A DNA stretch of 64,000 nt from a virus. Taxonomy: Duplodnaviria; Heunggongvirae; Uroviricota; Caudoviricetes. Below, in pieces: positions 10,020 to 50,638 of the stretch. Numbering within the stretch: position 1 is the first letter of the stretch; each line of letters begins with the position of its first letter. The notes beneath the pieces were generated by a model. It was not told the DNA's origin and ran no database searches. It saw only the letters and a program-made list of their open reading frames with translations. The position numbers and the translations under genes are program-made. The stretch lies in IMG/VR virus record IMGVR_UViG_2724678985_000012; one strand, given 5' to 3'.

Positions 10020-10183
10020 ATTTTTGTGTCCGTAAACCGCGTTACGCCCGAATTATGGTGGGGCGTGATGGGGAGGCTTCGGCCTGCTGGTTTCACTAAC
10101 GCCAGTCTGTCAACCCTGTCACGTCCTGCCACCTGTTTGACAGCGGGTAGCAGGTTGTTAAACCTGTTAGTGAGGCCGTAACT
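10020..10183 (+). ncRNA. c4-like antisense RNA / icd leader region of immI module 1 (boundaries approximate)
   Basis: structured leader directly upstream of icd-like ORF; internal complementary segments GGTTTCACTAACGCC / CCTGTTAGTGAGGCC. Confidence 0.3.
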
Positions 10184-10408
10184 ATGGTTAATGCCAATCC
10201 TTGCTCACGTCCTGAATTCATCTGGCGTTTCCACTCCCTGCAAAAACACTGCGATCACTTCGCAATTGCCGCAACCGAAAAAGAAGCCCGTTCTCTGATC
10301 CCTGATCAGCATGGTGTTCTTACTGGTCGTTTCTCTACTTCCCCACAACCAAACACTAATCCCTGGTATCGCAATATTACCAATCCCGGCATTGCGGAGG
10401 CACACTGA
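10184..10408 (+). CDS. icd: Icd-like small protein (immI module 1)
   Basis: 74 aa ORF whose stop overlaps ant start; c4-icd-ant arrangement; paralog at 49482. Confidence 0.5.
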   Translation: MVNANPCSRPEFIWRFHSLQKHCDHFAIAATEKEARSLIPDQHGVLTGRFSTSPQPNTNPWYRNITNPGIAEAH

Positions 10409-11115
10409 TGGATATCTGCATTCTTGAAAAGCCATCAATGACCAGCATTGAGATCGCGGAGCTGGTGGGAAAACGTCATGACAATGTGAAGCGTACCATT
10501 GAAACATTAGCCGAATCCGGCGTTATTGTTCGTCCTCAAATTGAGGATGAACCAAAAATAGATGTAATGGGGCGTTCTCGATTAATTCAGGTGTTCCGAT
10601 TTAGCGACGAGCAAGGCAAACGAGACAGTATCATTGTCGTTGCGCAGCTCTCTCCGGAATTCACCGCCCGGCTGGTGGACCGCTGGCGCGAACTGGAAGA
10701 ACAAGTACGCCAGCCGTTGACCGAAATAGAGATGATCGCCGCAATGGCTGCAAATGCAGTTCAGCAGCAAAAGCGGCTTCATGCTGTTGAGTCAAAGGTT
10801 AGCCAGGTCGCTGAAACCGTCGAGCAAATCAAGAAGGGCAATATGCCAGATGGTTACATTGGCTACCGCCAGCTGGCGGCGAAATGCGGCCTGACTGAAG
10901 CCAAATGTCGCAACCTTGTCAACGCTTACCGGATTCCCACCGATACACATGAGTTTTTAACTCCAGAGGGGGTATTGTCGCGTCGTTCCATCGTGGCCTT
11001 ATCTCCCTTCATGAATGCTTTTAACCGGATGATGTCGGAGGCTGAACACCGAGGAAAACGCTGGTATCACCCCAAAATGGGGCAATTCCAGGTGATCGGT
11101 TGGGGAGGTGAGTGA
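10408..11115 (+). CDS. ant: antirepressor Ant (Rha-type N-domain), copy 1
   Basis: 235 aa; conserved N- and C-terminal blocks shared with paralog at 49697. Confidence 0.7.
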   Translation: MDICILEKPSMTSIEIAELVGKRHDNVKRTIETLAESGVIVRPQIEDEPKIDVMGRSRLIQVFRFSDEQGKRDSIIVVAQLSPEFTARLVDRWRELEEQVRQPLTEIEMIAAMAANAVQQQKRLHAVESKVSQVAETVEQIKKGNMPDGYIGYRQLAAKCGLTEAKCRNLVNAYRIPTDTHEFLTPEGVLSRRSIVALSPFMNAFNRMMSEAEHRGKRWYHPKMGQFQVIGWGGE

Positions 11116-11312
11116 TGGACATCATGCAGGCGGTAAAAAAAATCAGGGAAGGACAGGCTGAAGTGTGCCGCCGTAAAGCATGGAGTGTTGGTGTATGGGC
11201 CTGGCCTGATAATTACTCTACTACCGGATGGTTTTGTATTAATGGACTCCAGATCCGGGAAGTTGATTTATCGACGGCTGATATAGTCGGTAATGATTGG
11301 ATCGTGACTTGA
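11112..11312 (+). CDS. small protein with DUF2829-like signature, homologous to C-terminus of Ant copy 2
   Basis: 66 aa; VCRRKAW...NDWIVT aligns with ant2 C-terminal ATVCRRSSW...TDWIVS; ATGA overlap with ant. Confidence 0.45.
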   Translation: MMDIMQAVKKIREGQAEVCRRKAWSVGVWAWPDNYSTTGWFCINGLQIREVDLSTADIVGNDWIVT

Positions 11313-11320
11313 AGCGTGAT

Positions 11321-11346
11321 GCCCCGGCCTGGCCGGGGCTTTTTTC
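11321..11346 (+). terminator. rho-independent terminator after immI module 1
   Basis: gccccggcc-t-ggccggggc hairpin followed by TTTTTT. Confidence 0.7.
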
Positions 11347-11830
11347 ATGCCTCATTAGTTGAGGTTGCTGCGTCTCCGACTGGTAACAGAGCGGTATTGT
11401 GTGGTTCGCCAGCAGGCCAGCGATAGCCAGACACTCTTGATGTTGGGAATGCGCGAATATTAACCGCATCCCCCTGGTTCCCACCCAAGACAAGCAGATC
11501 GCCATTGGCGCGGCGTCCGACAACGAAGCCTACGTGCCCACCGCCTACGCGGGTAAATACAACGATACATCCGTATGCCGGTGTATCTAATTTCTCGCCC
11601 CAATCCAGATAGGATTTTGCCGACTCAAATCTTGTTGAGCGGATGCCTACACGTTCCAGCATTGCACCGACAAATGCTGCGCACCACGGCGTTTCATCGT
11701 CTTTAATTCCGCCGCGCTTGATGTCGCGCCAGAACTGAACGATTTCAGGGTTGTGTTTAGCGCCTTTTATTTCAGTCAGGCCAATGTGCTTACGGGCTTC
11801 AATTAGCCAGCGAGGTTCAATGTTTGCCAT
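11345..11830 (-). CDS. TIGR02594-family (NlpC/P60-like) putative cell-wall hydrolase
   Basis: 161 aa; PWCAAF Cys and GGHVGFVVG His motifs characteristic of this phage-associated family. Confidence 0.5.
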   Translation of the reverse strand: MANIEPRWLIEARKHIGLTEIKGAKHNPEIVQFWRDIKRGGIKDDETPWCAAFVGAMLERVGIRSTRFESAKSYLDWGEKLDTPAYGCIVVFTRVGGGHVGFVVGRRANGDLLVLGGNQGDAVNIRAFPTSRVSGYRWPAGEPHNTALLPVGDAATSTNEA

Positions 11831-11981
11831 ATTTTTCTCCCGGTAATGGGTTAATAAGTAGGCAAACTATGGGGAGTATGTGATTTTGACGGTAGTATCG
11901 TCCCCCTGAAAATAACATTCTCCATACCCTCTCAACCGTACCGCATAGCGGAATTTTTTACGGTTTAGAGGGGGAAATCCT

Positions 11982-14900
11982 TTGGACAAACTACTTCATT
12001 CAATCAGTGAAGCCTCCAGCTTAGGCGAACTGATTGAAATTGTTAGTCGGTTGCATAAATTACGTGCTGTTGCGACCTTTGGCGTCAGGAAAGCCGATGG
12101 CGTCAGTATTCAGAAAACACGCCGGGCAGCAAACAATGCCGCAGTAAATCTTCTTAATTCCCTTCCGCCCGGCTTCGATGGGGCGAAATTAACTGACGAA
12201 CAACGTCAGATTCTTGCCGGGTATACCGGTGAAGGCGGCCTGACAGATGGTGAGGGCAGCCAATACGAATACTACACGCCACAGTTTATGGCTGAAGGTA
12301 TATGGGATCTGTTTGCTGACTACGGTATTGATGGCGGGCACGTACTGGAACCATCAGCGGGCACAGGTATTTTCCAGGAGACAAAACGGCAGGGCATGAT
12401 AATGACCAGCGCCGAACTGTCTCCGATTTCCGGTCGAATAAACCAGCTTTTGCACCCGGAAGACGATGTGAATATCGGGGCGTTTGAGGCGCTGGCGGCG
12501 AAAGACGCAATGTATGATCACGCTGTAGGTAACGTACCGTTTGGTGAAGGGCGTTCCGGTGTCGCCGGGCTTGATCCGGCATATGCAAACGAGAAGAACG
12601 TTGGCAATTACTTTGTGCTGCGCACGATCGACAAGGTTAAGCCTGGTGGGCTTATCGTATTGGTGGTGCCGAATGGCATGACCGATGGTGCGAAATATAA
12701 AAAATTGCGCGATAAAGTCAGCCGTAAAGCGGAATTTTTGGGCGCACATCGTATGCCTTCTGGTACGTTCAGCGAATCCGGTACAGATACCGTGGTGGAC
12801 GTATGGGTATTGCGTAAACACCCGGAAACCTTCCTGGAGATGATCCCCGACACGGATGATTCAACACTCAAATCGGCAAACGTCCTTTGGGATACCTTCC
12901 TCAAAGGAAAATGGTTTACAACCGAAGGGAAGCGATTTGTTTACGGCGACATGGAACGTACCAGCTTCCGCAATACCCTGGTGGTGAAAAAAGACGGTCG
13001 TGTATCCAATGAGTCGATGAAAACCGCGCTATCTCGTCGCTTTGATAGTCGCATCAATTGGGATTTGCTCGGCGTAACTACTCAGGCATGGCAGGGCGCG
13101 AAAGTGGGCGATAAACGCCTTGTAGGCGGTATCTGGCATGAGTTTGATGGTCTGAAATGGGTTAAGGACACGACAACCAAATCCTCCGCGCTTGATGTAA
13201 GTCGATATGGTGTTTCGACGTTTGGCGATCTGCAGATCGCGTTCCAGTCAACAAACGGGATTCTGGCTTTGTCATGGGACCAGATATCGGCGATCGCGTC
13301 CGACTATCCATCGGTTGTCAGTGATGAAGTGGCAGCAATGATTCGCTTTGCTGGCAAGCAGCGAGAAAAAGACAGGGAGCGCGTTATGCGCGGTGCGCTG
13401 ATAGGTCAGTTGATCAACAAGGCACTTGATTTGCGTAACCTGGGTGTGAACGTTGATGACAAACTGGCAGATGCATCCCGCCTGGCGGCAGCAGAAGTTG
13501 CGAAGTATGGACCACCGCACGCCATTAAGCTGAATGGGCTTGCTGAAGCTGGCGCTAAAAACTGGATGACGTTCACTGGCAATGTGAAACAGGATGGTTC
13601 CACTTCTGACCTTCTGGCAGGGCGACTTGATGTAACGGATGGTGCTGCCGGTATTGACTTTACACGTCCTGAACAAGTGATAGCACATCTTTTCAGTGAT
13701 GTAGCCCTTAATCCTATAACGCTGGGAGACTTTCGTGAGGCGTTTGCTGGTGAACTGCCAGAGGACGACGACGCGGCCCTTGAATACCTGGCGAAATTTG
13801 ATGATATCGCTATTGATGGGTATGGCTGCCTGCTGCCGATGGACCGCGCCACCAGCGGCGATATTGCAACCAAAACAGCATTGCTGATGGGCTGGCGTGA
13901 TGCGTCAACAGGTGAGCAGAAAGCGAACTTTGAGCGTCAGTTGGCGAAAATCGAAGAGAAACGTATTTTCACGCCACTAAATAAAGTCACCGTTAATCTG
14001 AATGCCCGCTGGCTGGATCGCCGCTTGATAAAAGAGTTCCTGGCAGAGCAGGGCTATGACGAGTTTAAGTACACTGAACCTGATCTGAAGGTCGTCGATG
14101 GCATTCTGGTATCTCCGGACGATTACGAAGGTAAGGACGGGGTATTTACCGGCTATCAGCTACGAACCGTAAACGGCAAAAACGGGAATGAGTTCAAGAA
14201 GGCCAACAATAAAGACGGCTTCCTGAACCAGTTAGAAAACTACCTGAACGGTGTTAAACCGCGTGGGCAGAACGCTAACGAGTACCTGGATAAAATTGCT
14301 CAACTGGAAGTTAGTTTTAACGACTGGTTACGCACTCACCCGCAGGCTGATCAGATAGCCCGCGAGTATAACGACGCATTCAATGGTTTCATTCCGTTCA
14401 CGCATTCTGACGCACCGCTTGGCCTGGAAGGGCTTAGTGGAAAGCGCATTCCTCTTACTTATCAGAATGAAGAAGTTCGGCGCTTGTCAGAAGATGGGCG
14501 CGGCATCATGGGATTTGGTACCGGGCTGGGTAAAACCACGACCGCGCTTGCGCTTGAGGCGTATAACTTCGAAACAGGTCGCACTAAACGCACGTGTATT
14601 GTTGTTCCGAAGGCGGTTTATCAGAACTGGTATCACGAGGCACAGAGTTTCTACAGTGCTGATGCCTTCGCCAATATGATGTTTATCGGTTTGGATGAAG
14701 TTCGTGATGACAGCGGAAATATTCTGACCGCGCCGGTGCTTGATGAAAATGGCGAACCACGCCTCGACAGTAACGGGCAGCCTCTTACCAGAAATGTTGT
14801 GAAAGAGTCCGCCAGCGCCGTTATCGTTCAGCGCATGAACATGATCCCGTCGTCAAATTGGCGAACGGTCATCATGACAAAAGAACAATTCGCGTCTATC

Positions 14901-17900
14901 CCGCTACGAGAAAAAACCATCGAGGAGAACTCACAGCAAGCTGTCTTTAATGCTGTGGAAATGGGGCGTCTTGACCTGGCGTCCGGTAAACACCGTGATG
15001 CGCAGAAGAAGAACAAGATTAAGGATCAGGCCGCGAATACCGGTACAACGAAGAAGCAGAATATCCCGTACTTTGAGGATATGAACTTCGATAGCGTGAT
15101 TGCCGACGAGGGGCATAACTACCGCAACTCCTTTAATGCCGGGCGTGAAGCGGGACAACTGGCATATTTGCCTAACCCGGCAGTATCCAAGATGGCCCGC
15201 GACATGGCTGTAAAAGCTGCGTACATGATGAAACGCAACAACGGGCGTGGTGTAGTCATGCTGACGGCAACTCCGCTGGTGAACAGTCCGATTGATGCCT
15301 TCAACATGCTGTCTACTGTCATTCCGCAGGAAGAGTGGATGCGCATGGGCATCATTACGCCTGATGATTTCGTTCGTGTGTTTGGCAAAACAGCCACAGT
15401 TCAGGTCCAGAAAATTTCCGGGGAAGTGGAAGAGAAGCAGGGGCTGGTGGGCTTCCAGAACCTTGACGGCCTGCGTGGTATTTTCCATCGTTGGACCACT
15501 CTGAAGACTGCTGCAGATGTCGGAGCAACGGTTAAAATTCCCGACATCATTGAGAACACCTTGCAGATCCCGATGACAGGGGAGCAGGAGACTGCTTATG
15601 AAGAGCTTCGTAAGCGTGCTCAGGAGTTAAGTCGCAATGATGAGCTGACAGTCGATGAAAACGGGCATATCACTAACGACAAACCGGATGATTTCATCTT
15701 CTCCATCATCCGTGACATGGACAAGGTTGCTATAGACCCGGATCTGTATGCCAGTGCGATTACATTCCAGTTCCCCGTTGAGCTTGCAGACCAGGTAAAA
15801 GCTATTGCTGATGCCTTGCCAAAAGTAGCTGGCGGTAAAGTGGCAGATGATGTTGATGAGGCCGAGGAAGACGGCGCTGGCGGGCTGGTCAGTACGCGTA
15901 CCAGCAAGGTAGTGAAGACCGCTTTTAGTGAACATCCGACGCATGTTGAAATACGTGCCAGCATTGAACTGGAAGCTGAAATACTTAAGGCCATTGCGGC
16001 TGCCGGTATTGATATGCAGCAGGTATCGCACCCCATCCCGCCGAAGTATGCCGCGCTGATCGAAAATCTTCGTGAAGGTCTGAAGAACGGTAAGCAGATC
16101 GTCTTTATTGATGAAAAAGCCCAGCACCAGAAGCTGCGCCGTATTATCGCCAGTGCACTGCAAATGCCGGAGCAGGAGATTGGCATTATCAATGCGACGA
16201 CAGTTAGCCAGGCTGGCGGCATCAAGCTGAAGAAGGTGAATAAGCCGACCGAACCTACTCCAAACAAAAACGGTGAATACAAAGAAGGGGCATGGGAAAC
16301 CTACTACAGCAAACTTGCCCAATATGAGGATTATCTCTCAGCCAAAAATGATGCTGGCCTTGAGGGCATGGAAGGTATTGCCGCCGACTATAACGAAGGT
16401 CGCACGCGCATCATAATCTGTAACAAGAAGGCTGAAGTAGGTATTAACCTGCACATCGGGACAACCGATATCCACCACCTGACACTACCCTGGACACCAG
16501 CCAGTATCGACCAACGAAATGGGCGCGGTGCGCGCGTAGGTTCACCGCAAGAGAAGGTCAATGTTCACTACTATTGTGGCAAAGGCACATTCGACGACTT
16601 CCGTCTGGATACGCTGAAACGTAAGAAAGACTGGATCAAGATGGTGATGACCTCCGACATGTCAGAGATCGCCAATGGTGATGCGGATGATGCTGATGAA
16701 CGCGCCATTATGCTGGCGGCAAACCCGGAAGAACGCCGCGCAATCATGGCTCGCCAGGCGCAAGAGCGTGAAGAACGTCTGAAACTGAAAGCACAGCGCG
16801 AGGCCAACAATGCTCTCGATATCTACCTGAAAGCGGCAAACGCCGCCGGAAAAGATATCGGCATGATGGAGACAGAACTGAAAAGCGCGATGGAACAGAT
16901 AGAGTATTACCAGCGCAATCTTGACGACCTGATAAAAGCGGGTACGAACAGGAATGGGCAAAAATACGCGCTTGAGCAGTTGAGTAGCTACAGAAAACGT
17001 GCGCGGGTGCTGAAGTTTGCGATCACCAGGGCAAAAGACGCGGATACCATAATGAAACGCTCTCGTGGTGATGTGGAGCGCGCTATTAAGTCTGGTGTGC
17101 TGGATATCAGTATCGATGTTATTCAGAACCCACAGGAATATATGCGCACTGACAAGAATATCCTGTTGCATAAAGGTAGTTATTACCGTGCAGTCATTGA
17201 TGATCGCGAAACAACAGCGATTGTCCGGGTGGAAAAAATTGACGGTGAAAAAGCACAATACATCTGCCGTATCGCCTGGCTGGATAGAGCAAGTCGTTAC
17301 GCTCGATCACCGGGGTCAATCGTTACATTGCCGTTTGACTCTGTGATTGAAGCGGTAACTTTTGAAGAGGGGGTAGCTGAATCGCGCGCAACGGCTGCGC
17401 GTGGTGTTCAGTGCCACCAGCTATCAACGTCACTTACTCGCGATCAGTTCTATGATGCTATTCGTAACGGAGTAATGAAGGTCACTACAGGCCAGCCTGG
17501 TAGAGCATGGGGCGGTGAACCAGGTATTAAATACTGGGCCTATCGCACCGATGATGGTCAGATCGCGCTGTCATCGACCTATGATGGCATGATAGGACAG
17601 AAAATCGGGCGTACATCGGATATTGCACCAGAGCAGTGGATTTACCCTGATATCAACAATGAGGCGCTGAAGCGTGAAGTGGCAAAAATACAAGCCAGTG
17701 ATAATCCGCTGAATATCGTGGACGGAGAGGGATTCCTCCAGGCATTGTATGGGTATGATTACATCCAGGGAATGCAGGCATGGGGCGCACAAGCAACGAT
17801 GGATGATGTTGCCCAGGAGTTCGAAAACTGGATGGCTGGGCGTGGTCTGTCAGGTCGCTCGCTTAATAAAGTCACTTCTGAAGATATTCTTAGCTTGTTC

Positions 17901-23249: not shown

Positions 23250-23326
23250 GATGGTGTAGCTCAGTAGGATAGAGCAGCAGCCTTCTAAGCTGTCGGTCGG
23301 TGGTTCGAATCCACCCACCATCGCCA
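23250..23326 (+). tRNA. tRNA-Arg (anticodon UCU)
   Basis: 77 nt cloverleaf: acceptor GATGGTG/CACCATC, anticodon loop CTTCTAA, T-loop TTCGAAT, encoded CCA. Confidence 0.85.
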
Positions 23327-23331
23327 ATTTA

Positions 23332-23418
23332 GGGGAGTTAGTCCGTAGGGGTAGCGGGGTAGACTGTAAATCTACTGTCATTGCGACTCGGGTGGTTCGA
23401 CTCCATCACTCCCCACCA
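23332..23418 (+). tRNA. tRNA-Tyr (anticodon GUA), long variable arm
   Basis: 87 nt; anticodon stem-loop GTAGA-CTGTAAA-TCTAC as in E. coli tRNA-Tyr; acceptor GGGGAGT/ACTCCCC; CCA. Confidence 0.75.
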
Positions 23419-23422
23419 AATT

Positions 23423-23498
23423 GCCGGTTTAGCTCAGTTGGTAGAGCGCCTGCCTTGTAAGCAGGATGTCAGCGGTTCGAGTCCGTTAACCGGCACCA
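23423..23498 (+). tRNA. tRNA-Thr (anticodon UGU)
   Basis: 76 nt; acceptor GCCGGTT/AACCGGC; anticodon loop CTTGTAA; CCA. Confidence 0.85.
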
Positions 23499-23704
23499 AC
23501 ACAACAGGTAAGGGCATTCTCCCTTATGGGGCTTGGCTTAAATGCATCGAGTGCTCTTACCGTTGTGATGAAGTGCAGCTCTTTGAAGCAACCAGAAGAT
23601 AAGCATCTGGCTTCACAACATAAACCGCAGGAACGACCAATAAACGGTAGTCCGTATGGAGAACACCCCGTTGAGGAAGAGGCCTGGCCGGAACCGTAAC
23701 CGGC

Positions 23705-23803
23705 ACCACAACGTTGAGAACACTGGCGTAACGGGGTCATATCCCAATCTATGAATAAATGTTGCGTTGCAGCGTGACAACCAGTGTTCTCAACATTGTG
23801 GTG
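23705..23803. repeat. long inverted repeat (20-bp arms) of the tRNA-island leader/trailer repeat family
   Basis: CACCACAACGTTGAGAACACTGG ... CCAGTGTTCTCAACATTGTGGTG; related copies at 23498-23518, 23562-23592, 23881-23902, 24080-24111. Confidence 0.7.
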
Positions 23804-23900
23804 AATGCACAGGCTGATGTGCCGCAACTACAGTAGTGCGCGCTTTGCGGGGCTTGCTACAACCCTGTGTCGGAGTTCAGCACCGACCATCACAATCACT

Positions 23901-23987
23901 GGAGAGTAGGGAGCATGGTGCTCAAGCGGTCTTGAAAACCGTCCCATTGCGCAAGCGATGATGGTTCGATTCCATTACTCTCCGCCA
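23901..23987 (+). tRNA. tRNA-Ser (anticodon UGA), class II with long variable arm
   Basis: 87 nt; acceptor GGAGAGT/ACTCTCC; anticodon stem-loop GCGGT-CTTGAAA-ACCGT; CCA. Confidence 0.7.
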
Positions 23988-24250
23988 GTGCAACGTTAAG
24001 AGTATTTGGCTAATTAAGCGAATGCCGGAAGCAGAACCGGATCACCAAATGCGTACAGGCGTCATCGCCGCCCAGCCAGCCAAGTGCTCTTACCATTGCG
24101 GTGAATGCGGCTAAGCGCACGCGGAACAGTTAAAACAATCCTCCTTAGTGGTTAAGTCAAACATCCCGGCGTTAATTGTTAACTGGTTAACGTCACCTGG
24201 AGGCACCAGGCACCGCAGCTTTTTTATTCGGTAAATAATGGAGTGAGAGG

Positions 24251-25294
24251 ATGCAGAACAATCCGAACAAATGTCGAACGCTATGGGTGCGGTTATATAT
24301 TTATGTCGTCCTCTGTTTGATTGTGTCACTGGTTCTGTATGTTTGGCTTTTGCCAAATATGATCTCATCTGACAGCACAATACTTGTATTGTTGGGAGTC
24401 CTTCTCGCGCTCATTTACCCGGCTTTTGCAGTAGTCTTTTTTCGTGAAAAAACCAGGAAATTGATTAATGAAAAAACGTTGATTAGTGCAGCGATTATTT
24501 TTGGTTCTTTATGTCTGACCGGATGCGATCGGGTAGAGCCAGGTAACGTAGGGATCAAAGTAAATAAGCTGGGGGATGATAAAGGTATCGGTGAAGTAGT
24601 TGGCGTTGGTCGCTACTGGACAGGCTTGAATACTGAAGTTTATATCTTCCCGACCTTTAAGCAAATGAAGACATACGATGAGCCGTTCAGCTTCCAGATG
24701 AGCGACGGAACAACCATTGGTTACCACATCGGCGTAGCCTACAAGGTTGATCCAGCAAAAGTCACAACGGTATTTCAGACCTATCGCAAAGGTGTAGATG
24801 ATATTACTGATACCGATCTACGCCAGAAGGTTGCAGATGCTCTGAACCGGTTAGCCAGCAAAATGACCACCGACAAATTTATCGACGGTGGCAAATCTGA
24901 ATTGCTTGATGCAGCCCTTAAAGACATTCAGGAAGAAATGACGCCCATCGGTATTCAGGTAATGAGCCTCTCATATGTGGGCAAGCCGGAGTACCCGCCA
25001 ACCGTTATCGACAGCATTAATGCCAAAGTCACGGCGAACCAGAAAACTCTGCAACGCGAGCAGGAAGTCAAGCAACGCGAAGCAGAAGCCAACATGCTGC
25101 GCGCAGAAGCTGCTGGACAGGCCGATGCCATTCGCACAAAAGCCCAGGCTGAAGCTGATGCCATTCGTTTACGCGGTGAGGCTCTGCGCCAGAACCCCGG
25201 CGTTATGGAGTTGGAAGCGATCAACAAATGGAACGGAACGCTACCGCAGTATATGACCAGTAATACCGCTGTTCCGTTTGTTCCGGTGAAATAA
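24251..25294 (+). CDS. SPFH (band-7/prohibitin)-domain membrane protein
   Basis: N-terminal TM/lipobox-like LTGC; SPFH-like core then Ala/Glu-rich coiled coil; true start likely downstream (24358 or later). Confidence 0.55.
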   Translation: MQNNPNKCRTLWVRLYIYVVLCLIVSLVLYVWLLPNMISSDSTILVLLGVLLALIYPAFAVVFFREKTRKLINEKTLISAAIIFGSLCLTGCDRVEPGNVGIKVNKLGDDKGIGEVVGVGRYWTGLNTEVYIFPTFKQMKTYDEPFSFQMSDGTTIGYHIGVAYKVDPAKVTTVFQTYRKGVDDITDTDLRQKVADALNRLASKMTTDKFIDGGKSELLDAALKDIQEEMTPIGIQVMSLSYVGKPEYPPTVIDSINAKVTANQKTLQREQEVKQREAEANMLRAEAAGQADAIRTKAQAEADAIRLRGEALRQNPGVMELEAINKWNGTLPQYMTSNTAVPFVPVK

Positions 25295-25448
25295 CCAAAT
25301 AGATAACATGATGGAATTTTGGACGTTTGCCGACAAGAACCCTTGGTGGACATTTTTATTTCTGCTGGTGGTTGCATATGGGGTCGAGCAAGCAGCAAAA
25401 GCCTTACGCGGTCCTGGCAAAAAGCGTAAGCGGAATTAACAGTAATCT

Positions 25449-25524
25449 GGCCCTTTAGCTCAGTGGTTAGAGCTGGCGACTCATAATCGCACGGTCACCG
25501 GTTCAAGTCCGGTAGGGGCCACCA
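25449..25524 (+). tRNA. tRNA-Ile2 (anticodon CAU, ileX-like; Met not excluded)
   Basis: 76 nt; near-identical architecture to E. coli ileX; anticodon loop CTCATAA; CCA. Confidence 0.75.
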
Positions 25525-30343: not shown

Positions 30344-31381
30344 TTACCAGAGCTTCGCGGCGTACTGCGTTTGGGGGAATGTGTATCCGTAACGTTCTTC
30401 GATTGCTTTGCCGTATTTTTTACGAGCTTCATTCAGTTTAATGCCGGTCAGGTCGTCTCCAGAGGCCATCATTACGTCTAACAATTCCAGATCCATTTTA
30501 TCCAGCCTTGCCATTGCTTCACGTGATGTACGTATCTTACGTTCAATGATATGGCGAATAGCCGGATCGGCATCCTCCAGCATCTTAGCGGATTTCTGCT
30601 TAAGGCTTTCATTGCGAATATCGATGTTCCTTAAGATGTACGACTTCGCAACGTAGCTTGGCTGGTGTTTTTCCAGGTCACGAACACGATATAAGTTAAA
30701 ATCGCCGAGAAGGCTGCAAGGTACCGATTCGACGCCAGAATAAATTGTAATGCTCCGGCGTTCACCAACATTATTGACAACGGGGATCGTTGTCTTCGGT
30801 AGTCTTGCGAAAACCAATGCGCCATGTGCGCCAACTCTAAAGCGAGAAAGGGCATTGCTGCCTTCGATGTTTGTTGTCAGCACAACATCTGTATATGCCT
30901 CTTTACGCGCCCGGTAGATCTCGCCTTCAGGCTCAGCTTCAAAGAAGCGCTGTTCTTCTTCAAGAGCACCTACGATTTGAGAAAAAACCCTATTTTTCAG
31001 GCTTTTCTTTATGATTTTGTCGTATTTTTTTAGCAATTGTTCACGTGTAAATGTACGTGTTGTTGTAGCGCTTTGCACAACGACATGCGTGCTTTGATTG
31101 GTGTCCTCAATGATGAATGGGATCGGAGAATATACAGACTCAACAATGTTCGACGCTTTGCCGTCGGCATCGCGGCACATGTCAACGAAGGCTTTCCATT
31201 CAGCAAGACATTTTTCAGCTTCTTCTAATATGTTTTGGTCATGCGTTAATGCAACATGGCGGAATTCCTCGCCAGCATAACTGGTATCATGGAAAACAGA
31301 GTTTGCGACCACCAGCTCTTTCCACCGTTCAGCGGTTTGCAGGAACCGTTTGTACTCTTTCTCGATCGACTTCTTACTCAT
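30344..31381 (-). CDS. hypothetical protein in the pac-to-rox interval (candidate immunity repressor by position only)
   Basis: 345 aa; operator-like motif overlaps its promoter/start region. Confidence 0.3.
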   Translation of the reverse strand: MSKKSIEKEYKRFLQTAERWKELVVANSVFHDTSYAGEEFRHVALTHDQNILEEAEKCLAEWKAFVDMCRDADGKASNIVESVYSPIPFIIEDTNQSTHVVVQSATTTRTFTREQLLKKYDKIIKKSLKNRVFSQIVGALEEEQRFFEAEPEGEIYRARKEAYTDVVLTTNIEGSNALSRFRVGAHGALVFARLPKTTIPVVNNVGERRSITIYSGVESVPCSLLGDFNLYRVRDLEKHQPSYVAKSYILRNIDIRNESLKQKSAKMLEDADPAIRHIIERKIRTSREAMARLDKMDLELLDVMMASGDDLTGIKLNEARKKYGKAIEERYGYTFPQTQYAAKLW

Positions 31382-41718: not shown

Positions 41719-41721
41719 GGT

Positions 41722-43454: not shown

Positions 43455-43471
43455 TATGTTAGAAAACTAAA
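43455..43471 (-). promoter_or_regulatory. C1-operator-like motif site 10 (inverted pair with 43478-43487)
   Basis: ATGTTAGAAAACTAAAATCAATGTTCTAACG. Confidence 0.5.
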
Positions 43472-43512
43472 ATCAATGTTCTAACGTGATTTTGAGTGCG
43501 TAAATGATTTGA

Positions 43513-44205: not shown

Positions 44206-44513
44206 GCGGCAACCTTCTCACGCAGCCAGATACAAACCGGACCATCTTCAGTGTCATGAATAGAGCCAACAAACCAGCCTTCACCCTCTGGTCGCTCCGG
44301 TTCCCAGGCGGCAATATCGGGACCAGCTGCGTCCAGATCAAAATCATCTTCATCCATACTGCGAATAGTCCACTGAAGATTATTTTCCTTCATCCAGGCG
44401 TCAAATTCCTCAGTGGAAATATATTCACGACCTGCGCAAAACTTCTCATACTCCGGATGTGTCCAGCAGCCATATTCATCACGTTCTACCGGCATTTCTT
44501 TAATGATGCTCAC
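44202..44513 (-). CDS. hypothetical protein
   Basis: 103 aa ORF, 4-nt overlap with neighbours. Confidence 0.4.
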
Positions 44514-44734
44514 TCTTCATCCTCCAAGTCGGCAACGGCCTCCATCACATCAGAACCGCGAATAACCTCAAAAGCACGGCAGGCCATTTCAAACACCTGT
44601 TGTTCTTGCGGATGCGGTGACTCCCAATACTTAAAACCAGGTCGATGCTCGTAACCCATCATGGAATAAAAATCGCCAGCAAGTTCAATCGCGGCATCAA
44701 CAAGTTCGCGATTTGTCATCGTCTGTTCTGTCAT
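44510..44734 (-). CDS. hypothetical protein
   Basis: 74 aa ORF. Confidence 0.35.
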   Translation of the reverse strand: MTEQTMTNRELVDAAIELAGDFYSMMGYEHRPGFKYWESPHPQEQQVFEMACRAFEVIRGSDVMEAVADLEDEE

Positions 44735-45006
44735 TTGGTTTTCTCCTGTCTGAACATCACTATCATCAGGTCGCCTTTTGTCGCTATTCTGGCTGTTGTG
44801 CCTGGTTCAATGCGGCTAAGCTCAAATGCGTCATAGAACGCTTCTAATGCCTTCTGGCGTAGTTCCTGTTTGCGCCGTTTTTTCCACTCTTTTAGGAAAA
44901 TGGAACCCAGCCATCGCCAGGTACGGGACATGATGTAAAGCCAACCGAAAAGTGCCAGACCGGTATTTAGGGCCGTATCGATTGTTATCGTGGTGTCGAT
45001 ATTCAC
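44731..45006 (-). CDS. small membrane protein
   Basis: 91 aa; N-terminal TM helix, basic stretch. Confidence 0.35.
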   Translation of the reverse strand: MNIDTTITIDTALNTGLALFGWLYIMSRTWRWLGSIFLKEWKKRRKQELRQKALEAFYDAFELSRIEPGTTARIATKGDLMIVMFRQEKTK

Positions 45007-45251
45007 TGTGGTGGCTCCTGCTTTTCTGCCTTCAATACCATGCGAGAACCATCATCCAGCTCCCAATTAATTTCACCGCCTTCAGCCATGACTAGATGCC
45101 AAACGAGTTGTGCGGCCTCGTTGGTTACATCACGACCGCGATCATTGCCGACACGACGTTTTGTTCCATCCCCTAAGTCACGCATTTTTGCCAACACGAT
45201 GGTTTTTGATAGCGGTGAAAAACCAAGCTGTAGTCGTGCGGAATTACTCAC
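45003..45251 (-). CDS. hypothetical protein
   Basis: 82 aa ORF. Confidence 0.35.
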   Translation of the reverse strand: MSNSARLQLGFSPLSKTIVLAKMRDLGDGTKRRVGNDRGRDVTNEAAQLVWHLVMAEGGEINWELDDGSRMVLKAEKQEPPQ

Positions 45252-46012
45252 TGTTTGCCTCCTTTTCCAAGCTGGGCGGCGATATCTTCGAGAACGCCAT
45301 CAGAGAATGAGCGGTCAAAATCGCCTTCCGGCGCATTAGCCATAAACTCAGTAGAGGTAAGAATCATCCGGGCAATATCCGCGGCGTTCTTCGCAGTATC
45401 ATCAATAAAACCAGCTTCCCAGGCAGCCAGCATTCTGTTCGCCACAAAGTAAGCGCCCTCCTTGCGTGCTTCAGTCTTCACTTCAGCCAGGAAAGCATCG
45501 GTGGCTGGTGTTTGCGGCATCCCTCCATCTGTTGCGCAGATATACGCATCAGATATTTCATCCTGCTCGCCATCAAACACGTAGCAACTCTGTGCGATGA
45601 ATTTATTCAGCCCCGCATTCTCCGCCGCCAGCGCCGCGCGATTACCCTCCAGCTCTGCAATGCGCTGTTTTGCGGTATCAAGTTCAATCGATAATTTTTC
45701 CAACTGCTCTTTATGCTTCTTGTATTCCTGATATGCGTGCCAGGACTGACCTTTGCGCACACTATCAGTAATATCAGTAATCTGTTCTGGTGTTAGCGTA
45801 GTCAGTGGCTGTGCTGGGAAAATCAGCACTTTCCCGGAATCCCAATCAAAACCAGCGTGAATTGACTGAACCTCAACTGAGGGTGTTGAACCAATGCTGC
45901 CAGGCGAATGAACAACGATCGTTACATCCATATCGCGACGATGGCTGTGGTTGTTGGACAAAATACGATTCACCAACTCAGAAAATTTGGAGAATTTCAT
46001 GCGGAGCCTCAA
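45248..46012 (-). CDS. Ead/Ea22-like protein (paralog A)
   Basis: coiled coil AALAAENAGL then TPATDAFLAEV... domain shared with 46416-46904. Confidence 0.45.
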   Translation of the reverse strand: MRLRMKFSKFSELVNRILSNNHSHRRDMDVTIVVHSPGSIGSTPSVEVQSIHAGFDWDSGKVLIFPAQPLTTLTPEQITDITDSVRKGQSWHAYQEYKKHKEQLEKLSIELDTAKQRIAELEGNRAALAAENAGLNKFIAQSCYVFDGEQDEISDAYICATDGGMPQTPATDAFLAEVKTEARKEGAYFVANRMLAAWEAGFIDDTAKNAADIARMILTSTEFMANAPEGDFDRSFSDGVLEDIAAQLGKGGKQ

Positions 46013-46410
46013 TATGCAAAATAGACCGTTGCCACGCCGTTATAGTGATCAAACGATACGGCGTTTACTTCATAGCTGGCAGGGAGCTTCGAGCCGAGAA
46101 CATATCCGGGCCACGTTTTCCATGGAATTTCTCTACTCTCACTATCCCCATATACCGTACATCCAAGTGAACCTACAGCCTCGTCAGAACGTTTGCCGCA
46201 TGTTATGAAACCTATATTTTTCTTGCCGGTCTTAATGGCGATTGGGTGAACACTGGCTGATGCATTGGCAGCACGCTGTGACTGTTGGTTTGCGATATTC
46301 GCAGAGTTCGCAGCAGCTACAGCAGCCGTGGTCGCGGCGGTAGATGCCACAATAACTGCTGAAGCCTGCGCCTGTTGGGTAATGGTCAGCAATGCCGCCA
46401 CAAAAATCAT
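46009..46410 (-). CDS. small secreted protein
   Basis: signal-peptide-like MIFVAALLTITQQAQASA; start uncertain. Confidence 0.3.
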   Translation of the reverse strand: MIFVAALLTITQQAQASAVIVASTAATTAAVAAANSANIANQQSQRAANASASVHPIAIKTGKKNIGFITCGKRSDEAVGSLGCTVYGDSESREIPWKTWPGYVLGSKLPASYEVNAVSFDHYNGVATVYFAY

Positions 46411-46415
46411 CCTCT

Positions 46416-46904
46416 TCACTTGCCAGCTCCTTTGCGAATCTGTTCCGCCCATTCTTCAAGGGATTTCTCCGCATATTCACCAGACAGGCCATCAATCGGA
46501 TGCGCTTCATTAGCCAACTCTTCTTTCGCTGACAAAATCATGCGTGTAACGTCGAAAACTTCACGCAAAGACTTATTGATAAATCCGTGATTGAACGCAG
46601 CAGCAAGACGGCTTGCGGTATAGTTAATCCCCTCGTTGCGAGCCGCCGCACGAATTTCAGCCAGAAAAGCATCGGTGGCTGGAGTTTCGCTGTGGTGCAG
46701 GGCATCGTTGATAATCATTGCAGCAACTCCGGCCTGCCCTGCATCCGTGACCGACACATGCTCAAGAGTTACAGCCATTGCATGTTTCAGCCCAGCATTC
46801 TCCGCCGCTAGCGCAGCACACGCTTTCTCAAGTCGGGAAATTTCCGTTACATACTCAGCGTTACGCTCTGCCAGTTGTGCGGGCGTTAAACCTTCAGACT
46901 TCAT
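46416..46904 (-). CDS. Ead/Ea22-like protein (paralog B)
   Basis: 162 aa; AALAAENAGLKHA and TPATDAFLAEIRAAARNEG. Confidence 0.45.
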   Translation of the reverse strand: MKSEGLTPAQLAERNAEYVTEISRLEKACAALAAENAGLKHAMAVTLEHVSVTDAGQAGVAAMIINDALHHSETPATDAFLAEIRAAARNEGINYTASRLAAAFNHGFINKSLREVFDVTRMILSAKEELANEAHPIDGLSGEYAEKSLEEWAEQIRKGAGK

Positions 46905-47211
46905 ACACTCTCCTTTCGAAATAAACGTACTGATTAATCATGCCCAGGGGCATTTCGAGTTTTTCCGCGATCTCACGGCGGGGAACACCACACTGATGAA
47001 GCTGCCGTGCCAGTTCTATATCGCTCTGCCGGTATTTGGCTGACGGATGAAAGTCTCCTTTCAGAATCATGCTGATCCCCAACTCCCGCGCTTTAGTCCT
47101 GACGGCATCACCGGTACGACCGATCAGCTTCCCAATACTCTCGACCGTCATAGTTCCGGCGCACTGGCGGAGTATCATGATTTCTGCCCTTCCCCATCCC
47201 CGCCAGCTCAC
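46894..47211 (-). CDS. putative HTH DNA-binding protein
   Basis: 105 aa; two HTH-like segments (ESIGKLIGRTGDAVR, RREIAEKL). Confidence 0.35.
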   Translation of the reverse strand: MSWRGWGRAEIMILRQCAGTMTVESIGKLIGRTGDAVRTKARELGISMILKGDFHPSAKYRQSDIELARQLHQCGVPRREIAEKLEMPLGMINQYVYFERRVYEV

Positions 47212-47819
47212 GCAGAACTCCTTCTAACCAAAAGAACGCCATCTTCAGAAACAACGTTGCAGGACTTCAGGTAATTCATTGCCTCTTTCGGTAATGGATT
47301 CTTTGGATCGGCGTTTGCCAGGGATTTCGATAACCTCATGATAAATTTGATCATTACCTTCTGGCGGAGCTTGTGCTCATGAGATAAAGAAAGGTAATAG
47401 GAAATGGTATGGGCTAAACGCTCACGAAGCTGTTCTGTGCCGTGATATACAGCAGCGATATCACGCAGTGCATTGACCAGTTCCCGGTAAATATGTGGAG
47501 CAACCTGGCATTCAATGTTGGTTGGTGACTCATAAATTACAGTCAGCCCCAGCTTTTCAGCCAGCGCGTGCTCTGCACGAGCACCAACCGATTCTTCCCA
47601 TCGATTGAGCAAATAGATCGCATCAGCAGAACGCACCATTGCCAGGCAAATATCCATGTATTCACTCTGGCAAAGGCCACCAGGTAACACCGCTGGATTC
47701 AGAACGATATGCCCTTCAGCCATCAGCTCGATCGCTTTCGCATTAAACGCCGCACGGTTGTAATCTGGATAACCAGTCATCGGCCCCGCGATGTAAATTT
47801 TCAAAACACGTTTCACCAT
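47208..47819 (-). CDS. DUF4406-like (nucleoside 2-deoxyribosyltransferase-like) protein
   Basis: from MVKRVLKIYIAGPMTGYPDYN...; C-terminal extension. Confidence 0.4.
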   Translation of the reverse strand: MVKRVLKIYIAGPMTGYPDYNRAAFNAKAIELMAEGHIVLNPAVLPGGLCQSEYMDICLAMVRSADAIYLLNRWEESVGARAEHALAEKLGLTVIYESPTNIECQVAPHIYRELVNALRDIAAVYHGTEQLRERLAHTISYYLSLSHEHKLRQKVMIKFIMRLSKSLANADPKNPLPKEAMNYLKSCNVVSEDGVLLVRRSSA

Positions 47820-48010
47820 CAAAATTTCCCCAAAATCGTGACGCAAAACATAAGCACTGCGAAAAGCTCAATACCAAGTTCAAGTAGCGCCAACGCCCCG
47901 AAAAACAACACATAGAACAGGCCAATCTCATTCACAGATGGCTGGTGGATCGCACTTAAAGCTATAAGCATCATGTCCTCCAAACAGTTATCAGGAATGA
48001 TATTAATGTT

Positions 48011-48027
48011 TTGTATTAGAAAATCAA
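48011..48027 (-). promoter_or_regulatory. C1-operator-like motif site 11 (variant)
   Basis: TGTATTAGAAAATCAATTT upstream of ref-like gene. Confidence 0.4.
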
Positions 48028-48091
48028 TTTTGAATATCTAACCATTTTGATCAATCATAGAAAAATCGCTGAAAAGTAAGAGGCTGCCATC

Positions 48092-48670
48092 ATGCAGAAA
48101 CAGAGCTATTGGGAGAAACAGAGACAAAAAGCCATGCAAAAATTGGCTGACCCGGCCTGGCGAGAGGAACAAAGGGCAAAGCGCCTTCAACAAGCTCAAC
48201 GCCAGCAGCAGCGAGCGAGAGAAAAAGCCGCATCGCCTGAATATCGGCAAAAAAAAATTGAAAAAGCAAAGCAATATGACCAGCGGAGAAAAGAGAAAGC
48301 TGTATCCGCTCCGTCCAAAAAAACACGCACGTCACGCGGCCTGAAGGGCAGATCACTCACAGCCGATGAACGCCGGATACAGACCGCTATCGGTACTCTC
48401 CCCTGCATTGCCTGCCATATTCACGGGAAACATAGCCCAGTGGTATCCCTGCACCATATCTTCGGGAGAACGGCAGAGAACGCACATAAATATGTCCTCC
48501 CTTTGTGTAAATGGCACCACCAGTACGCAGCGCCAGCCGAGGTCCGAGAACAATATCCCTGGCTGGTCCCTGTTCATGCTGATGGAAAAATAGGCGGAAA
48601 AGCAGATTTCATACGGCACAATGCCGATGAAATGGCGTTGTATCAGATGGCGATTGAATTGATAAATTAG
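48092..48670 (+). CDS. ref: Ref-like HNH endonuclease (recombination enhancement function)
   Basis: 192 aa; basic Q/R/K-rich N-terminus then CIACHIHG...SLHHIFGR...PLCKWHH. Confidence 0.6.
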   Translation: MQKQSYWEKQRQKAMQKLADPAWREEQRAKRLQQAQRQQQRAREKAASPEYRQKKIEKAKQYDQRRKEKAVSAPSKKTRTSRGLKGRSLTADERRIQTAIGTLPCIACHIHGKHSPVVSLHHIFGRTAENAHKYVLPLCKWHHQYAAPAEVREQYPWLVPVHADGKIGGKADFIRHNADEMALYQMAIELIN

Positions 48671-48682
48671 TTTTCTAACATT
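48665..48682 (+). promoter_or_regulatory. C1-operator-like motif site 12
   Basis: TAAATTAGTTTTCTAACATTTTAAG just after ref stop. Confidence 0.5.
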
Positions 48683-49299
48683 TTAAGTTGAATTGTGAAT
48701 TTCCCCGATGTACATTCACTACCGATTGGTACACCGGTCAACTTTTTGAGACAAACTGTTTAGTTTTTCGTATTATTGCCGCCGCCATACCTATGGCGGT
48801 GCAATATAGGTGGCTGAAAAGCCCCCGTTGACTCACGGTGTTCCAGCCTTTATTGCGCCGCCACCAGACCGTGGAACAGTCGATGGCGGCTCCGAAAGCA
48901 AGGAGTCACTACACTATGAACAACTACAGTCTTTTCCCATCACTCGTCGTCCACCACTCACGCGATAATCTGCATTCTTTACTCGCGCCGGGGGTGTCAA
49001 AATGACTGTTCGCTACCTCAACTTTCAAATCAAGAACATTACTGGCGGTTGCTATGACTGGTTTGTCACTCTCGGAAAAGAAGTGATTACTGGTAAACTG
49101 GATGAAGTGAAAGCTAAAGCAATGGCCTACGCCTGCAAGCAAACCAGGAAGAAATCCGCCAAAGCATAAAATACTGACTGTTGCGCCCTGGCATTATCGT
49201 GGGGTATATTTCTACGGCACCTTAGAAAAACGGGTGCCGGGATTGGAACCCCGGATAATGTCAAAGGCGACACAGACGCCGAAAGCGTCTTTTTTTGTG

Positions 49300-49481
49300 T
49301 CACGCCATCGCACAGCCATACGTAGCGTTTAGCTCAGAGATCAATGGTAGTGCTGGCTGGGCTGCCGAAAGGCAGGCCGGTTCCCTTTGACGCCGGTAGT
49401 TCCAACCCAGTCAGTGCTACCGCCATTGAGATTGGAACCTCACGCGGTAGCTCCTTAACTTAGTCAAAGGAGGCTGCCAAT
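49300..49481 (+). ncRNA. c4-like antisense RNA / icd leader region of immI module 2 (boundaries approximate)
   Basis: follows terminator gacgc-cgaaa-gcgtcTTTTTTT; tRNA-like GTTTAGCTCAG; GGTAGTGCTGGCTGGG pairs with CCCAGTCAGTGCTACC 45 nt downstream. Confidence 0.35.
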
Positions 49482-49697
49482 ATGGCTACTATCCCTACCC
49501 CAACTCATTCTGAATTTATCTGGCGTTTCTATTCCTGCCAAAAACACCTGTATATCTGCGTCATGGCTGCTACCGAAGCAGAGGCGCGCTCATACCTTCC
49601 CGAAGAACCCTGCATTTTTGCTGCTCGCTTCACTCTTGATGCGATGGAGATCCTCAATTACTGGAATCTGCCGATGAACTGCGTGGAGGTGCACTGA
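49482..49697 (+). CDS. icd: Icd-like small protein (immI module 2)
   Basis: 71 aa; paralog of 10184-10408 (shared EFIWRF...QKH...AATE.EARS); stop overlaps ant. Confidence 0.5.
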   Translation: MATIPTPTHSEFIWRFYSCQKHLYICVMAATEAEARSYLPEEPCIFAARFTLDAMEILNYWNLPMNCVEVH

Positions 49698-50638
49698 TGA
49701 ATCTGTCCATCTCTCAAAAAGCGACAATGACCAGTATTGAGATCGCGGAACTGGTGGGAAGTCGTCACTCTGATGTTAAACGCAGCATCGAAAGACTTGT
49801 TGCTAAAGGAGTTATCCAACATACGCCATTGGCTACAGTTGAGAATAATCAATCACTTAGCCCTAATAAATACACAAAAGCCTATTTCTTCGAAGGCGAA
49901 CAAGGCAAGCGCGATAGTATTGTCGTCGTCGCGCAGCTCTCTCCCGAATTCACCGCCCGGCTGGTGGACCGCTGGCGCGAATTGGAGAATGCCCGGGTAC
50001 AGTTAAAATCAAAAGCCGAAATTCTGGCTGAAATGGCGCAAATGCATCTTGAACATGAACGCCGGATCAACGCCGTAAATGCCCAGGTAGCCGAGGTATC
50101 GGCACAAGTGTCCAGGGTCGCTGAAACCGTTGAGCAAATCAAGAAAGGCAATATGCCGGAAGGCTACATTGGCTACCGCCAGCTGGCGGCAAAATGCGGC
50201 CTGACCGAAGCCAAATGTCGCAACCTGGTCAACGCTTACCGGATTCCCACCGATACGCATGAGTTTTTAACTCCCGATGGTTTGCTTGCGCGACGCTCCA
50301 TTGTGGCCCTGGCCCCCTTCCGGAAAGCCTTTAAGCAGGTGATGTCGGAGGCAGAACCACGCAATAAACGCTGGTATCATCCAAAGATGGGGATGTTTCA
50401 GGCAATCAACCATCCTGTGCCTGAAAGCCCAAAGGATAATCTGTCACTACATACCGCCAGAGAGAAGATCAGGACTGGATACGCAACAGTGTGTCGTCGT
50501 TCTTCCTGGCCTGAAGGTATATGGGTGTGGCCCGAAGGTGGATCACGAAAGCACTGGCGCACTATCCGGGATGGGAAAATCCATGCTATTGATTTAGCTC
50601 CAGAGGATGTTGTTGCTACGGACTGGATTGTTAGTTAA
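49697..50638 (+). CDS. ant: antirepressor Ant, copy 2, with fused C-terminal DUF2829-like domain
   Basis: 313 aa; conserved blocks with copy 1; C-terminal ...TDWIVS homologous to separate ORF 11112-11312. Confidence 0.7.
   Translation: MNLSISQKATMTSIEIAELVGSRHSDVKRSIERLVAKGVIQHTPLATVENNQSLSPNKYTKAYFFEGEQGKRDSIVVVAQLSPEFTARLVDRWRELENARVQLKSKAEILAEMAQMHLEHERRINAVNAQVAEVSAQVSRVAETVEQIKKGNMPEGYIGYRQLAAKCGLTEAKCRNLVNAYRIPTDTHEFLTPDGLLARRSIVALAPFRKAFKQVMSEAEPRNKRWYHPKMGMFQAINHPVPESPKDNLSLHTAREKIRTGYATVCRRSSWPEGIWVWPEGGSRKHWRTIRDGKIHAIDLAPEDVVATDWIVS

Follow-up and report, generated by a model that had tools for sequence, protein, structure and literature searches.

In the immI region of phage P1, the RNA C4 pairs with two sites, a2 and b2, so that translation of icd is blocked and expression of the antirepressor gene ant is lost as a consequence. 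This mechanism was reportedly worked out by Citron and Schuster in 1990 and in later work. In Gifsy-1, transcription reads through the terminator of the RNA IsrK into an antirepressor operon, short IsrK supplied in trans raises translation of anrP 139-fold, and stationary-phase induction requires the isrK-anrP locus (Hershko-Shalev et al. 2016, PMC4825925). The same study describes a stable processed RNA, STnc1160, which is complementary to IsrK and which its authors likened to the CI RNA of P4 (PMC4825925). Here we analyze a stretch of 64,000 nucleotides (nt) from a virus of the Caudoviricetes (IMG/VR record IMGVR_UViG_2724678985_000012; hereafter the window, meaning the whole stretch), which carries two c4-icd-ant modules, and we establish their anatomy, homology, complementarity and covariation. 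Both modules are very probably functional ant operons gated by a C4 RNA.

Anatomy of the two modules

Both modules are complete units of the immI type, as judged from Rfam matches, open reading frames (ORFs) and alignments (Table 1). This bears out the core of a preliminary description made from the letters of the window alone, which had proposed two paralogous c4-icd-ant modules: the structured leaders with internal complementarity are C4 RNAs recognized by Rfam and have perfectly matched targets; the Icd-like ORFs of 71-74 amino acids (aa) end in an overlap of icd stop and ant start, TGATG, in both modules; and both antirepressors, there called Rha-type, lie above the Pfam cut-off for Phage_pRha. 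The Rfam gathering scores are 45 for C4 (RF01695), 46.7 for c4-a1b1 (RF03163) and 50 for isrK (RF01394). The product of ant1 also matches PHROG 63, 'anti-repressor Ant' (E=3.5e-47), and the Icd proteins are 61% (Icd1, over 61 aa, tblastn) and 63% (Icd2, over 59 aa) identical to Icd of P1.

The modules resemble each other from end to end. Icd1 and Icd2 are 45% identical over 51 aa (E=6e-16), near the 50% or so first estimated, and Ant1 and Ant2 are 62% identical over 238 aa (E=9e-107). The leaders are co-linear and only about half identical, and the near-identical GC hairpins at the ends, GCCCCGGCCTGGCCGGGGC and GCCCCGGTCAGGCCGGGGC, differ at two loop-proximal positions, with a T run after the first only. 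These comparisons support paralogy over the whole length: leader, icd, ant and hairpin. Two details of the preliminary description had to be revised: its module starts, 10020 and 49300, cut off a1/b1 (9969-9989 and 49243-49267) as well as the putative promoters, and the 66-aa ORF that it counted as part of module 1 turns out to be a gene of its own, with homology to the C terminus of Ant2.

The minimum-free-energy folds of both C4 RNAs match the family consensus, a long closing stem with two inner hairpins. In each module, the segments a' and b' of C4 are perfectly complementary to a2 and b2 over 7-8 nt, with predicted duplex energies of -8.2 and -11.7 kcal/mol for the targets of module 1 and -8.8 and -12.7 kcal/mol for those of module 2. 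Overall, cognate duplexes range from -8.2 to -13.4 kcal/mol and cross-module duplexes from -2.8 to -6.8 kcal/mol. The a' and b' sequences are entirely different between the two C4 RNAs, as had been anticipated for leaders of heteroimmune specificity, which predicts that each C4 silences only its own operon; there should be no cross-talk between the two switches.

The position of b2 suggests how this silencing would work. In module 1, b2 abuts or overlaps the Shine-Dalgarno sequence of icd1 (GAGG, 10172-10175), and in module 2 it overlaps that of icd2 (GGAGG, 49469-49473). A single transcript would run from the promoter through the a1/b1 leader, the C4 RNA, a2/b2, icd and ant, and C4, excised by RNase P on the immI model, would bind a2 by its junction a' and b2 by its hairpin loop b'. 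Translation of icd would be prevented, since b2 occupies the icd ribosome-binding site, and the antirepressor would not be made either, since the start of ant lies within the icd stop. We draw on experiments with P1, P7 and Gifsy-1 for repression, RNA processing and translational coupling here, and for what the Ants act on and the biological rationale below.

Upstream of C4 the two leaders have the same layout, and the difference between them is one of degree. In module 1, a weak terminator-like hairpin and U run follow a1/b1 (about 9996-10026), and the Rfam isrK covariance model finds no match in this module. In module 2, C4 begins 44 nt downstream of the strong terminator of the isrK match. 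The promoter-like site of module 1 aligns with the constitutive P51b of P1 (alignment to the annotated P1 immI); D6 retains the hexamers of the putative module 2 promoter, and RCS47-type copies have them as TTGCGC...TATGCT. A conserved 55-aa ORF of unknown function (49002-49169; PHROG 7786) ends shortly before the module 2 promoter, and a minus-strand 58-aa ORF across the IsrK-like RNA (49127-49303) occupies the position of the 99-codon orf84 of D6 and is probably no gene. A LexA box was looked for upstream of module 2 and rejected, there being no CTG-N10-CAG in 49170-49216 (by eye only).

Table 1. Features of the two modules and the C1 homologue, in window coordinates.
Feature	Position	Strand	Description and evidence
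Module 1 putative sigma-70 promoter	9909-9937	+	TTGATC-17-TATATT; consensus scan; aligns with P1 promoter P1c4 (formerly P51b)
Module 1 a1/b1 leader	9931-9989	+	Rfam c4-a1b1 RF03163 match 9931-9983, 54.4 bits; fold z=-4.5
Module 1 a1	9969-9975	+	TTGACAG
Module 1 b1	9983-9989	+	GTTAGTG
Module 1 C4 antisense RNA	10051-10136	+	Rfam RF01695, 68.8 bits, E=2.8e-11
Module 1 b' (loop)	10094-10100	+	CACTAAC
Module 1 a' (junction)	10107-10113	+	CTGTCAA
Module 1 a2	10137-10143	+	TTGACAG; homologous to annotated P1 a2
Module 1 b2	10166-10172	+	GTTAGTG; homologous to annotated P1 b2
icd1	10184-10408	+	74 aa, Icd-like; PHROG 1426, E=6.5e-39; D6 orf19 annotated icd-like
ant1	10408-11115	+	235 aa, Rha-type antirepressor; Pfam PF09669, 37.5 bits against cut-off 29.9
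66-aa ORF	11112-11312	+	Overlaps ant1 stop; PHROG 7385
Module 1 intrinsic terminator	11321-11346	+	GCCCCGGCCTGGCCGGGGC (11321-11339), then TTTTTT; terminator scan
C1-repressor homologue	30344-31381	-	345 aa; PHROG 1678
Module 2 putative promoter	49181-49210	+	TTGCGC-18-TATATT, ending 6 nt before the IsrK-like RNA; by sequence
Module 2 IsrK-type a1/b1 leader RNA	49217-49296	+	Rfam isrK RF01394 match 49217-49295, 62.7 bits
Module 2 a1	49243-49249	+	TTGGAAC; inside isrK match
Module 2 b1	49260-49267	+	GTCAAAGG; inside isrK match
Module 2 leader intrinsic terminator	49274-49296	+	AGACGCCGAAAGCGTCT + T7; strong; terminator scan, fold
Module 2 C4 antisense RNA	49340-49427	+	Rfam RF01695, 77.1 bits, E=2.4e-13
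Module 2 b' (loop)	49384-49391	+	CCTTTGAC
Module 2 a' (junction)	49399-49405	+	GTTCCAA
Module 2 a2	49432-49438	+	TTGGAAC
Module 2 b2	49463-49470	+	GTCAAAGG
icd2	49482-49697	+	71 aa, Icd-like; PHROG 1426, E=3.7e-41
ant2	49697-50638	+	313 aa, Rha-type antirepressor; Pfam PF09669, 32.7 bits against cut-off 29.9
GC hairpin after ant2	50647-50665	+	GCCCCGGTCAGGCCGGGGC; near-identical to module 1 terminator stem

Keys and targets across related genomes

A sign that this pairing matters comes from comparison with other genomes. Aligned with D6, P1 and P7, the leader of module 1 is near-invariant except at the recognition sites, which change jointly: b is GTTAGTG in P1 and the window, GATTGTG in P7 and ACTTACG in D6, repeated at b1, b' and b2, and P7 has also changed its a allele, to TTAGCAG, at all three a sites. 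The recognition allele of module 1 is exactly that of P1. Changes of a and b are likewise coordinated over three sites in module 2, where the alleles are TTGGAAC/GTCAAAGG in the window, TTGAGAC/GCAAAAGG in D6 and TTGAGAC/GTCAAAGG in RCS47. Compared with D6, the window therefore differs in b at lock 1 (module 1) and in both a and b at lock 2 (module 2), in leaders that are about 98% identical outside the recognition nucleotides. On these differences we predict heteroimmunity to D6 at both locks for the window phage, whose lock 1 key is that of P1.

The same coordination holds at the level of populations. Leaders were gathered from IMG/VR by two scans that required an exact core match of 24-25 nt; those of the module 1 kind are called type 1 here, and those with the IsrK+C4 arrangement of module 2 type 2. 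Concordance at all six sites was found in 72 of 74 type-2 leaders, the remaining two being discordant at a1 only, and all four a-by-b combinations occur. Among the type-1 matches listed, all of the 96 leaders that could be parsed by pattern were concordant (two a and six b alleles). One of the unparsed type-1 leaders, L117 (IMGVR_UViG_2565956613_000015), has the allele ACGAAT at b1 and b' and GTTAGT at b2; this is perhaps a recombinant, with an ant operon that is partly free of control by its own C4.

Since the a and b sites interleave along the transcript (a1, b1, b', a', a2, b2), linkage by itself does not explain this concordance, and recombination would need several precise crossovers to produce all a-by-b combinations. 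The concordance thus indicates selection for pairing. Triple compensatory change of this kind implies ongoing selection, and hence that neither module is a remnant.

By megablast, the sole full-length match of both regions is Escherichia phage D6 (NC_050154), with 94.0% identity for module 1 and 91.0% for module 2. The gene sets of D6 and of D6-like plasmid prophages (e.g. pYU39_89) match those of the window modules, and on these matches we assign the window to a D6-like plasmid prophage. In the complete D6 genome both modules are syntenic, at equal relative positions, and the record annotates 'Icd-like' and 'anti-repressor Ant' twice, as orf19/18/17 (by repL and lysozyme) and as orf83/82 (by ref). 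The presence of both modules at syntenic positions in D6 makes the pair a trait of the lineage and not an oddity of this sequence. Homology to D6 ends just past the ant2 hairpin (50666-50765), where the pmgF-like orf81 of D6 is missing from the window; the next ORF (50766-51116) is the counterpart of D6 orf80. Elsewhere, the window has five tRNA genes on the plus strand at 23250-25524 (Arg-tct, Tyr-gta, Thr-tgt, Ser-tga and Met-cat), four of them reported by Rfam at its gathering threshold.

Nor are two modules unusual beyond D6, as the preliminary description had supposed. A second c4/icd region was noted in a D6-like plasmid in 2019 (PMC6799933), and an extra ant between pacB and c1 was reported in pTZ20_1P and RCS47 (PMC6906374); by sequence inspection, alignment and Rfam, the RCS47 locus is a type-2 module. 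The module 2 region is matched by 456 PLSDB records, and hundreds of contigs, about 90 kb long and from E. coli and Salmonella, encode Ant2 homologues with 73% identity or more. Among 38 related IMG/VR contigs of at least 75 kb, at least 15 carry both leader types, a count that, like all our counts of genomes with both modules, is a lower bound. The pairing is therefore conserved, and already known, in D6-like and many P1-like phage-plasmids, and a single immI per P1-type phage is true of the reference phages P1 and P7, not of the whole group.

Alleles and cargo are both exchanged. Two or three type-1 modules are present on at least four contigs of 75 kb or more, where no two copies on a contig share an allele, and some P1-like contigs of about 97-103 kb have three C4 modules with differing recognition alleles (L088/L151/L179, L091/L126/L174, L057/L141). 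Allele pairs are shuffled among D6-like contigs; the pair of the window, P1-type lock 1 with TTGGAAC/GTCAAAGG at lock 2, recurs in at least three. Among IMG/VR loci, the type-1 leader precedes a P1-type Ant at least 75 times and a Rha-type Ant at least 17 times, and the type-2 leader does so 34 and 21 times, respectively. As far as these loci indicate, leader type and Ant class assort independently, and Ant class follows the phage backbone. Module capture, one of the origins first proposed for the pair, is plausible in this light, the IsrK+C4 leader being one that lambdoid prophages also have.

Antirepressors, their target and the use of a second lock

What do the two locks control? The Rha-type Ant is modeled by AF2 with winged-helix-like N-terminal and central domains, and the two ant genes share two blocks (10633-10690 and 10807-10950 in ant1) with 90-100% DNA identity, between flanks of 35-60%. 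The second block, of 144 nt, is 90-96% identical in four copies (both paralogues, in the window and D6), and the shared blocks mix genome-specific and paralogue-specific variants. Between window and D6 orthologues, the N-terminal third has only about 68% DNA identity; outside this third and the shared blocks, ant1 is 100% and ant2 96-99% identical. This mosaicism suggests domain swapping with occasional gene conversion; conversion or exchange between ant1 and ant2 themselves is compatible with the 144-nt block, and unproven.

The 66-aa ORF of module 1 is 42% identical (E=1e-18) to residues 249-313 of Ant2, its C-terminal 65 aa (window 50441-50635). By this similarity, one and the same domain stands alone in module 1 and is fused to the Ant2 C terminus in module 2. 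A candidate identity, the Tad2-like family PF11195 (DUF2829; Thoeris anti-defence), is a hint at most: no threshold was passed in Pfam, whole-library HMMER, AF2, Foldseek or two PDB profile searches. The Pfam matches of the 66-aa ORF and the Ant2 C terminus spanned the whole model but stayed below threshold, at E=0.034 and 0.72, P0126, which is distantly related, reached 23.9 bits (cut-off 25), the AF2 pLDDT of the C-terminal domain was only 45-65, and neither Foldseek against the PDB nor the PDB profile searches returned a Tad2 match.

The presumed common target of both Ants is the C1-repressor homologue of the window, which is 21% identical to the RCS47/P1-type C1 over 270 aa (tblastn, E=2.6e-7). 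The near-identity of the central Ant blocks suggests one common target. Each genome examined directly has the same Ant class in both modules (Rha-type in the window and D6, P1 Ant1-type in RCS47), which would fit both Ants acting on the repressor of their own phage. Probably, then, both act on this diverged C1. The prophage would be repressed only while both locks are closed, and a superinfecting relative would be held in check only if it matched both alleles. We hold with moderate confidence that this is what the second module is for: lysogeny needs two closed locks, and immunity a match at both. Dual antirepressor control, which the preliminary description listed among its explanations of the pair, is a candidate only.

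Several observations weigh against this two-lock interpretation, or against the function of module 2. In our literature search, whose coverage did not extend to the D6 genome paper, we found no experiments on D6-like phages. The Ants are not homologous to Ant1/2 of P1, so that their target is assumed only, and the P1-type C1 operator consensus has no match in the window with up to 3 mismatches. The module 2 promoter was missed by the consensus scan, its -35 hexamer being too weak, and its placement is a conjecture; no T run follows the hairpin downstream of ant2, and the terminator scan reports nothing there. Finally, the authors of the Gifsy-1 study concluded that IsrK acts by a direct structural switch in the mRNA and not by titration of a C4-like RNA, and over-expression of the C4-like RNA did not relieve IsrK toxicity (PMC4825925). 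As for the operator, a C1 only 21% identical to the P1 type may have one that differs from the P1 consensus; no repeated operator motif was found through the ATTGCT-type word (9892) or in a loose scan for ATTGCT plus AT-rich sequence.

Might the two modules instead divide the labor? In that case module 1 would provide superinfection immunity, like P1 immI, and module 2 would be an induction switch of the Gifsy-1 IsrK-AnrP type, in which an IsrK-like RNA accumulates under stress, unblocks icd2-ant2 and induces the prophage. Only module 2 has the isrK match and, following a1/b1, an intrinsic terminator that is strong; more than 130 lambdoid records, and Gifsy-1 too, have this IsrK+C4 leader ahead of ant-like genes; and in Gifsy-1 IsrK does activate the antirepressor and is required for stationary-phase induction (PMC4825925). 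However, module 1 shares the layout, including the terminator-like hairpin and U run, and the type-2 alleles diversify and co-vary as the type-1 alleles do, which is expected of an immunity determinant and not of a purely internal sensor. We consider such a division possible, though rather unlikely.

The additional module could also serve attack, in that a second, differently keyed ant would let an infecting phage escape the resident C4 and grow on, or induce, a lysogen; the benefit would then be anti-immunity rather than broader immunity. The contigs on which two or three type-1 modules all differ in allele would fit this, as would the shuffled allele combinations of D6-like genomes and the mosaic Ant N-terminal domains, diverged next to segments that are 100% identical between orthologues. 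Yet the near-identical central blocks of both Ants point to one target and not to the repressors of different rivals, and since the same architecture yields both effects, all of this is compatible with the two-lock interpretation as well. As the main use of the second module, we regard attack as unlikely. The two-lock rationale excludes neither division of labor nor attack.

The possibility that one of the modules is in decay as a duplicate, or that the genome is a hybrid, as the preliminary description had allowed, or a mis-assembly, could find support in the missing T run and promoter hit of module 2, but it is extremely improbable and we discard it: ORFs and C4 structures are intact and targets perfectly matched in both modules, the complementarity of the leaders is real, both modules stand in synteny in the complete genome of an isolated phage, D6, and three-site compensatory changes in both families mark ongoing selection.

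For the window itself the finding is of small consequence, duplication being a family trait of common plasmid prophages of E. coli and Salmonella. For the group, immunity apparently depends on short antisense keys, two or three per phage, that evolve through coordinated triple changes and pass between lineages, and two locks would multiply the number of immunity classes. If true, this would predict which phage-plasmids coexist with, exclude or induce one another, which is of practical interest, since several of these elements carry resistance genes.

Comparison with Gifsy-1, P1 and P7

The module 2 leader places this phage beside systems that have been studied in another context. The pair of IsrK followed by C4 is also found by Rfam in D6, RCS47 and phiP27, and relatives of the entire leader (about 285 nt) are found at 70% identity ahead of ant-like genes, in over 130 records of lambdoid or Stx phages. 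In Gifsy-1 (L197, 34131-34329), an isrK match of 79.3 bits overlaps a c4-a1b1 match and is followed by C4 (69 bits), upstream of anrP; the location of this C4 match, between isrK and anrP, is the one given in print for 'orf45'/STnc1160. Like module 2, then, Gifsy-1 isrK-orf45(STnc1160)-anrP consists of isrK with its own terminator, then C4, then an antirepressor operon, and in both the antirepressor is read through a short upstream ORF. Unlike module 2, Gifsy-1 is without an icd homologue, its upstream ORF is a 45-codon frame in overlap with the C4-like RNA, its output is connected to the antiterminator AntQ, and the published IsrK mechanism is a structural switch of the mRNA.

From these overlapping matches we conclude, on sequence grounds, that the Rfam families isrK (RF01394) and c4-a1b1 (RF03163) both describe the a1/b1 leader of C4 systems and hence one element; a 2025 review treats IsrK and c4 as separate (PMC12197685). 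Module 2 belongs to the experimentally studied IsrK class and, by analogy, its a1/b1 RNA probably counters C4 and makes the switch inducible. The equivalence also offers an alternative reading of how IsrK works in Gifsy-1.

More tentatively, P1/D6 phage-plasmids might combine a multi-lock immunity code with an a1/b1 (IsrK) decoy that titrates C4. The C4 locks, orthogonal and one to three per genome, may come from a shared pool of at least 2x6 type-1 and 2x2 type-2 alleles and be reassorted without regard to the antirepressor that they control; if the decoy is real, each lock could be titrated, and Gifsy-1 IsrK and P1 immI would come under one mechanism. Four results go beyond the literature that we found: three-site covariation at population level, key and cargo that assort independently, IsrK as the equivalent of a1/b1, and an Ant C-terminal domain that is either split off or fused.

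Among P1-like plasmids, the second module of RCS47, JL22 and pTZ20_1P resembles module 2 in its type-2 IsrK+C4 leader (87-95% identity) and in the start of icd, and it draws on the same allele pool. Its genomic position, between pacB and c1, differs from that in the window, and in RCS47 its Ant is of the P1 Ant1 type (54% identical to P1 Ant1), unlike the Rha-type Ants here. No homologue of P1 Ant1 or of the second RCS47 Ant was found in the window at E<=1e-3 (tblastn).

With P1 and P7 the agreement is closest in the RNA. Their immI and both window modules share one order: a1, b1, C4, a2, b2 on the icd ribosome site, and icd overlapping ant. The module 1 leader, 93% identical to that of P1 over 372 nt, aligns base for base with the annotated immI of both P1 and P7, including a1, b1, a2 and b2. 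DNA homology to P1 ends inside icd, and upstream of the module the segment with promoter P51a and operator Op51 is missing, appearing as an alignment gap. The term 'P1-type immI' in the preliminary description thus fits the RNA and icd and fails for the antirepressors, which are unrelated to Ant1/2 of P1. The reference phages P1 and P7 have one module and the window phage has two; as between P1 and P7, specificity lies in a few loop nucleotides that change along with their targets.

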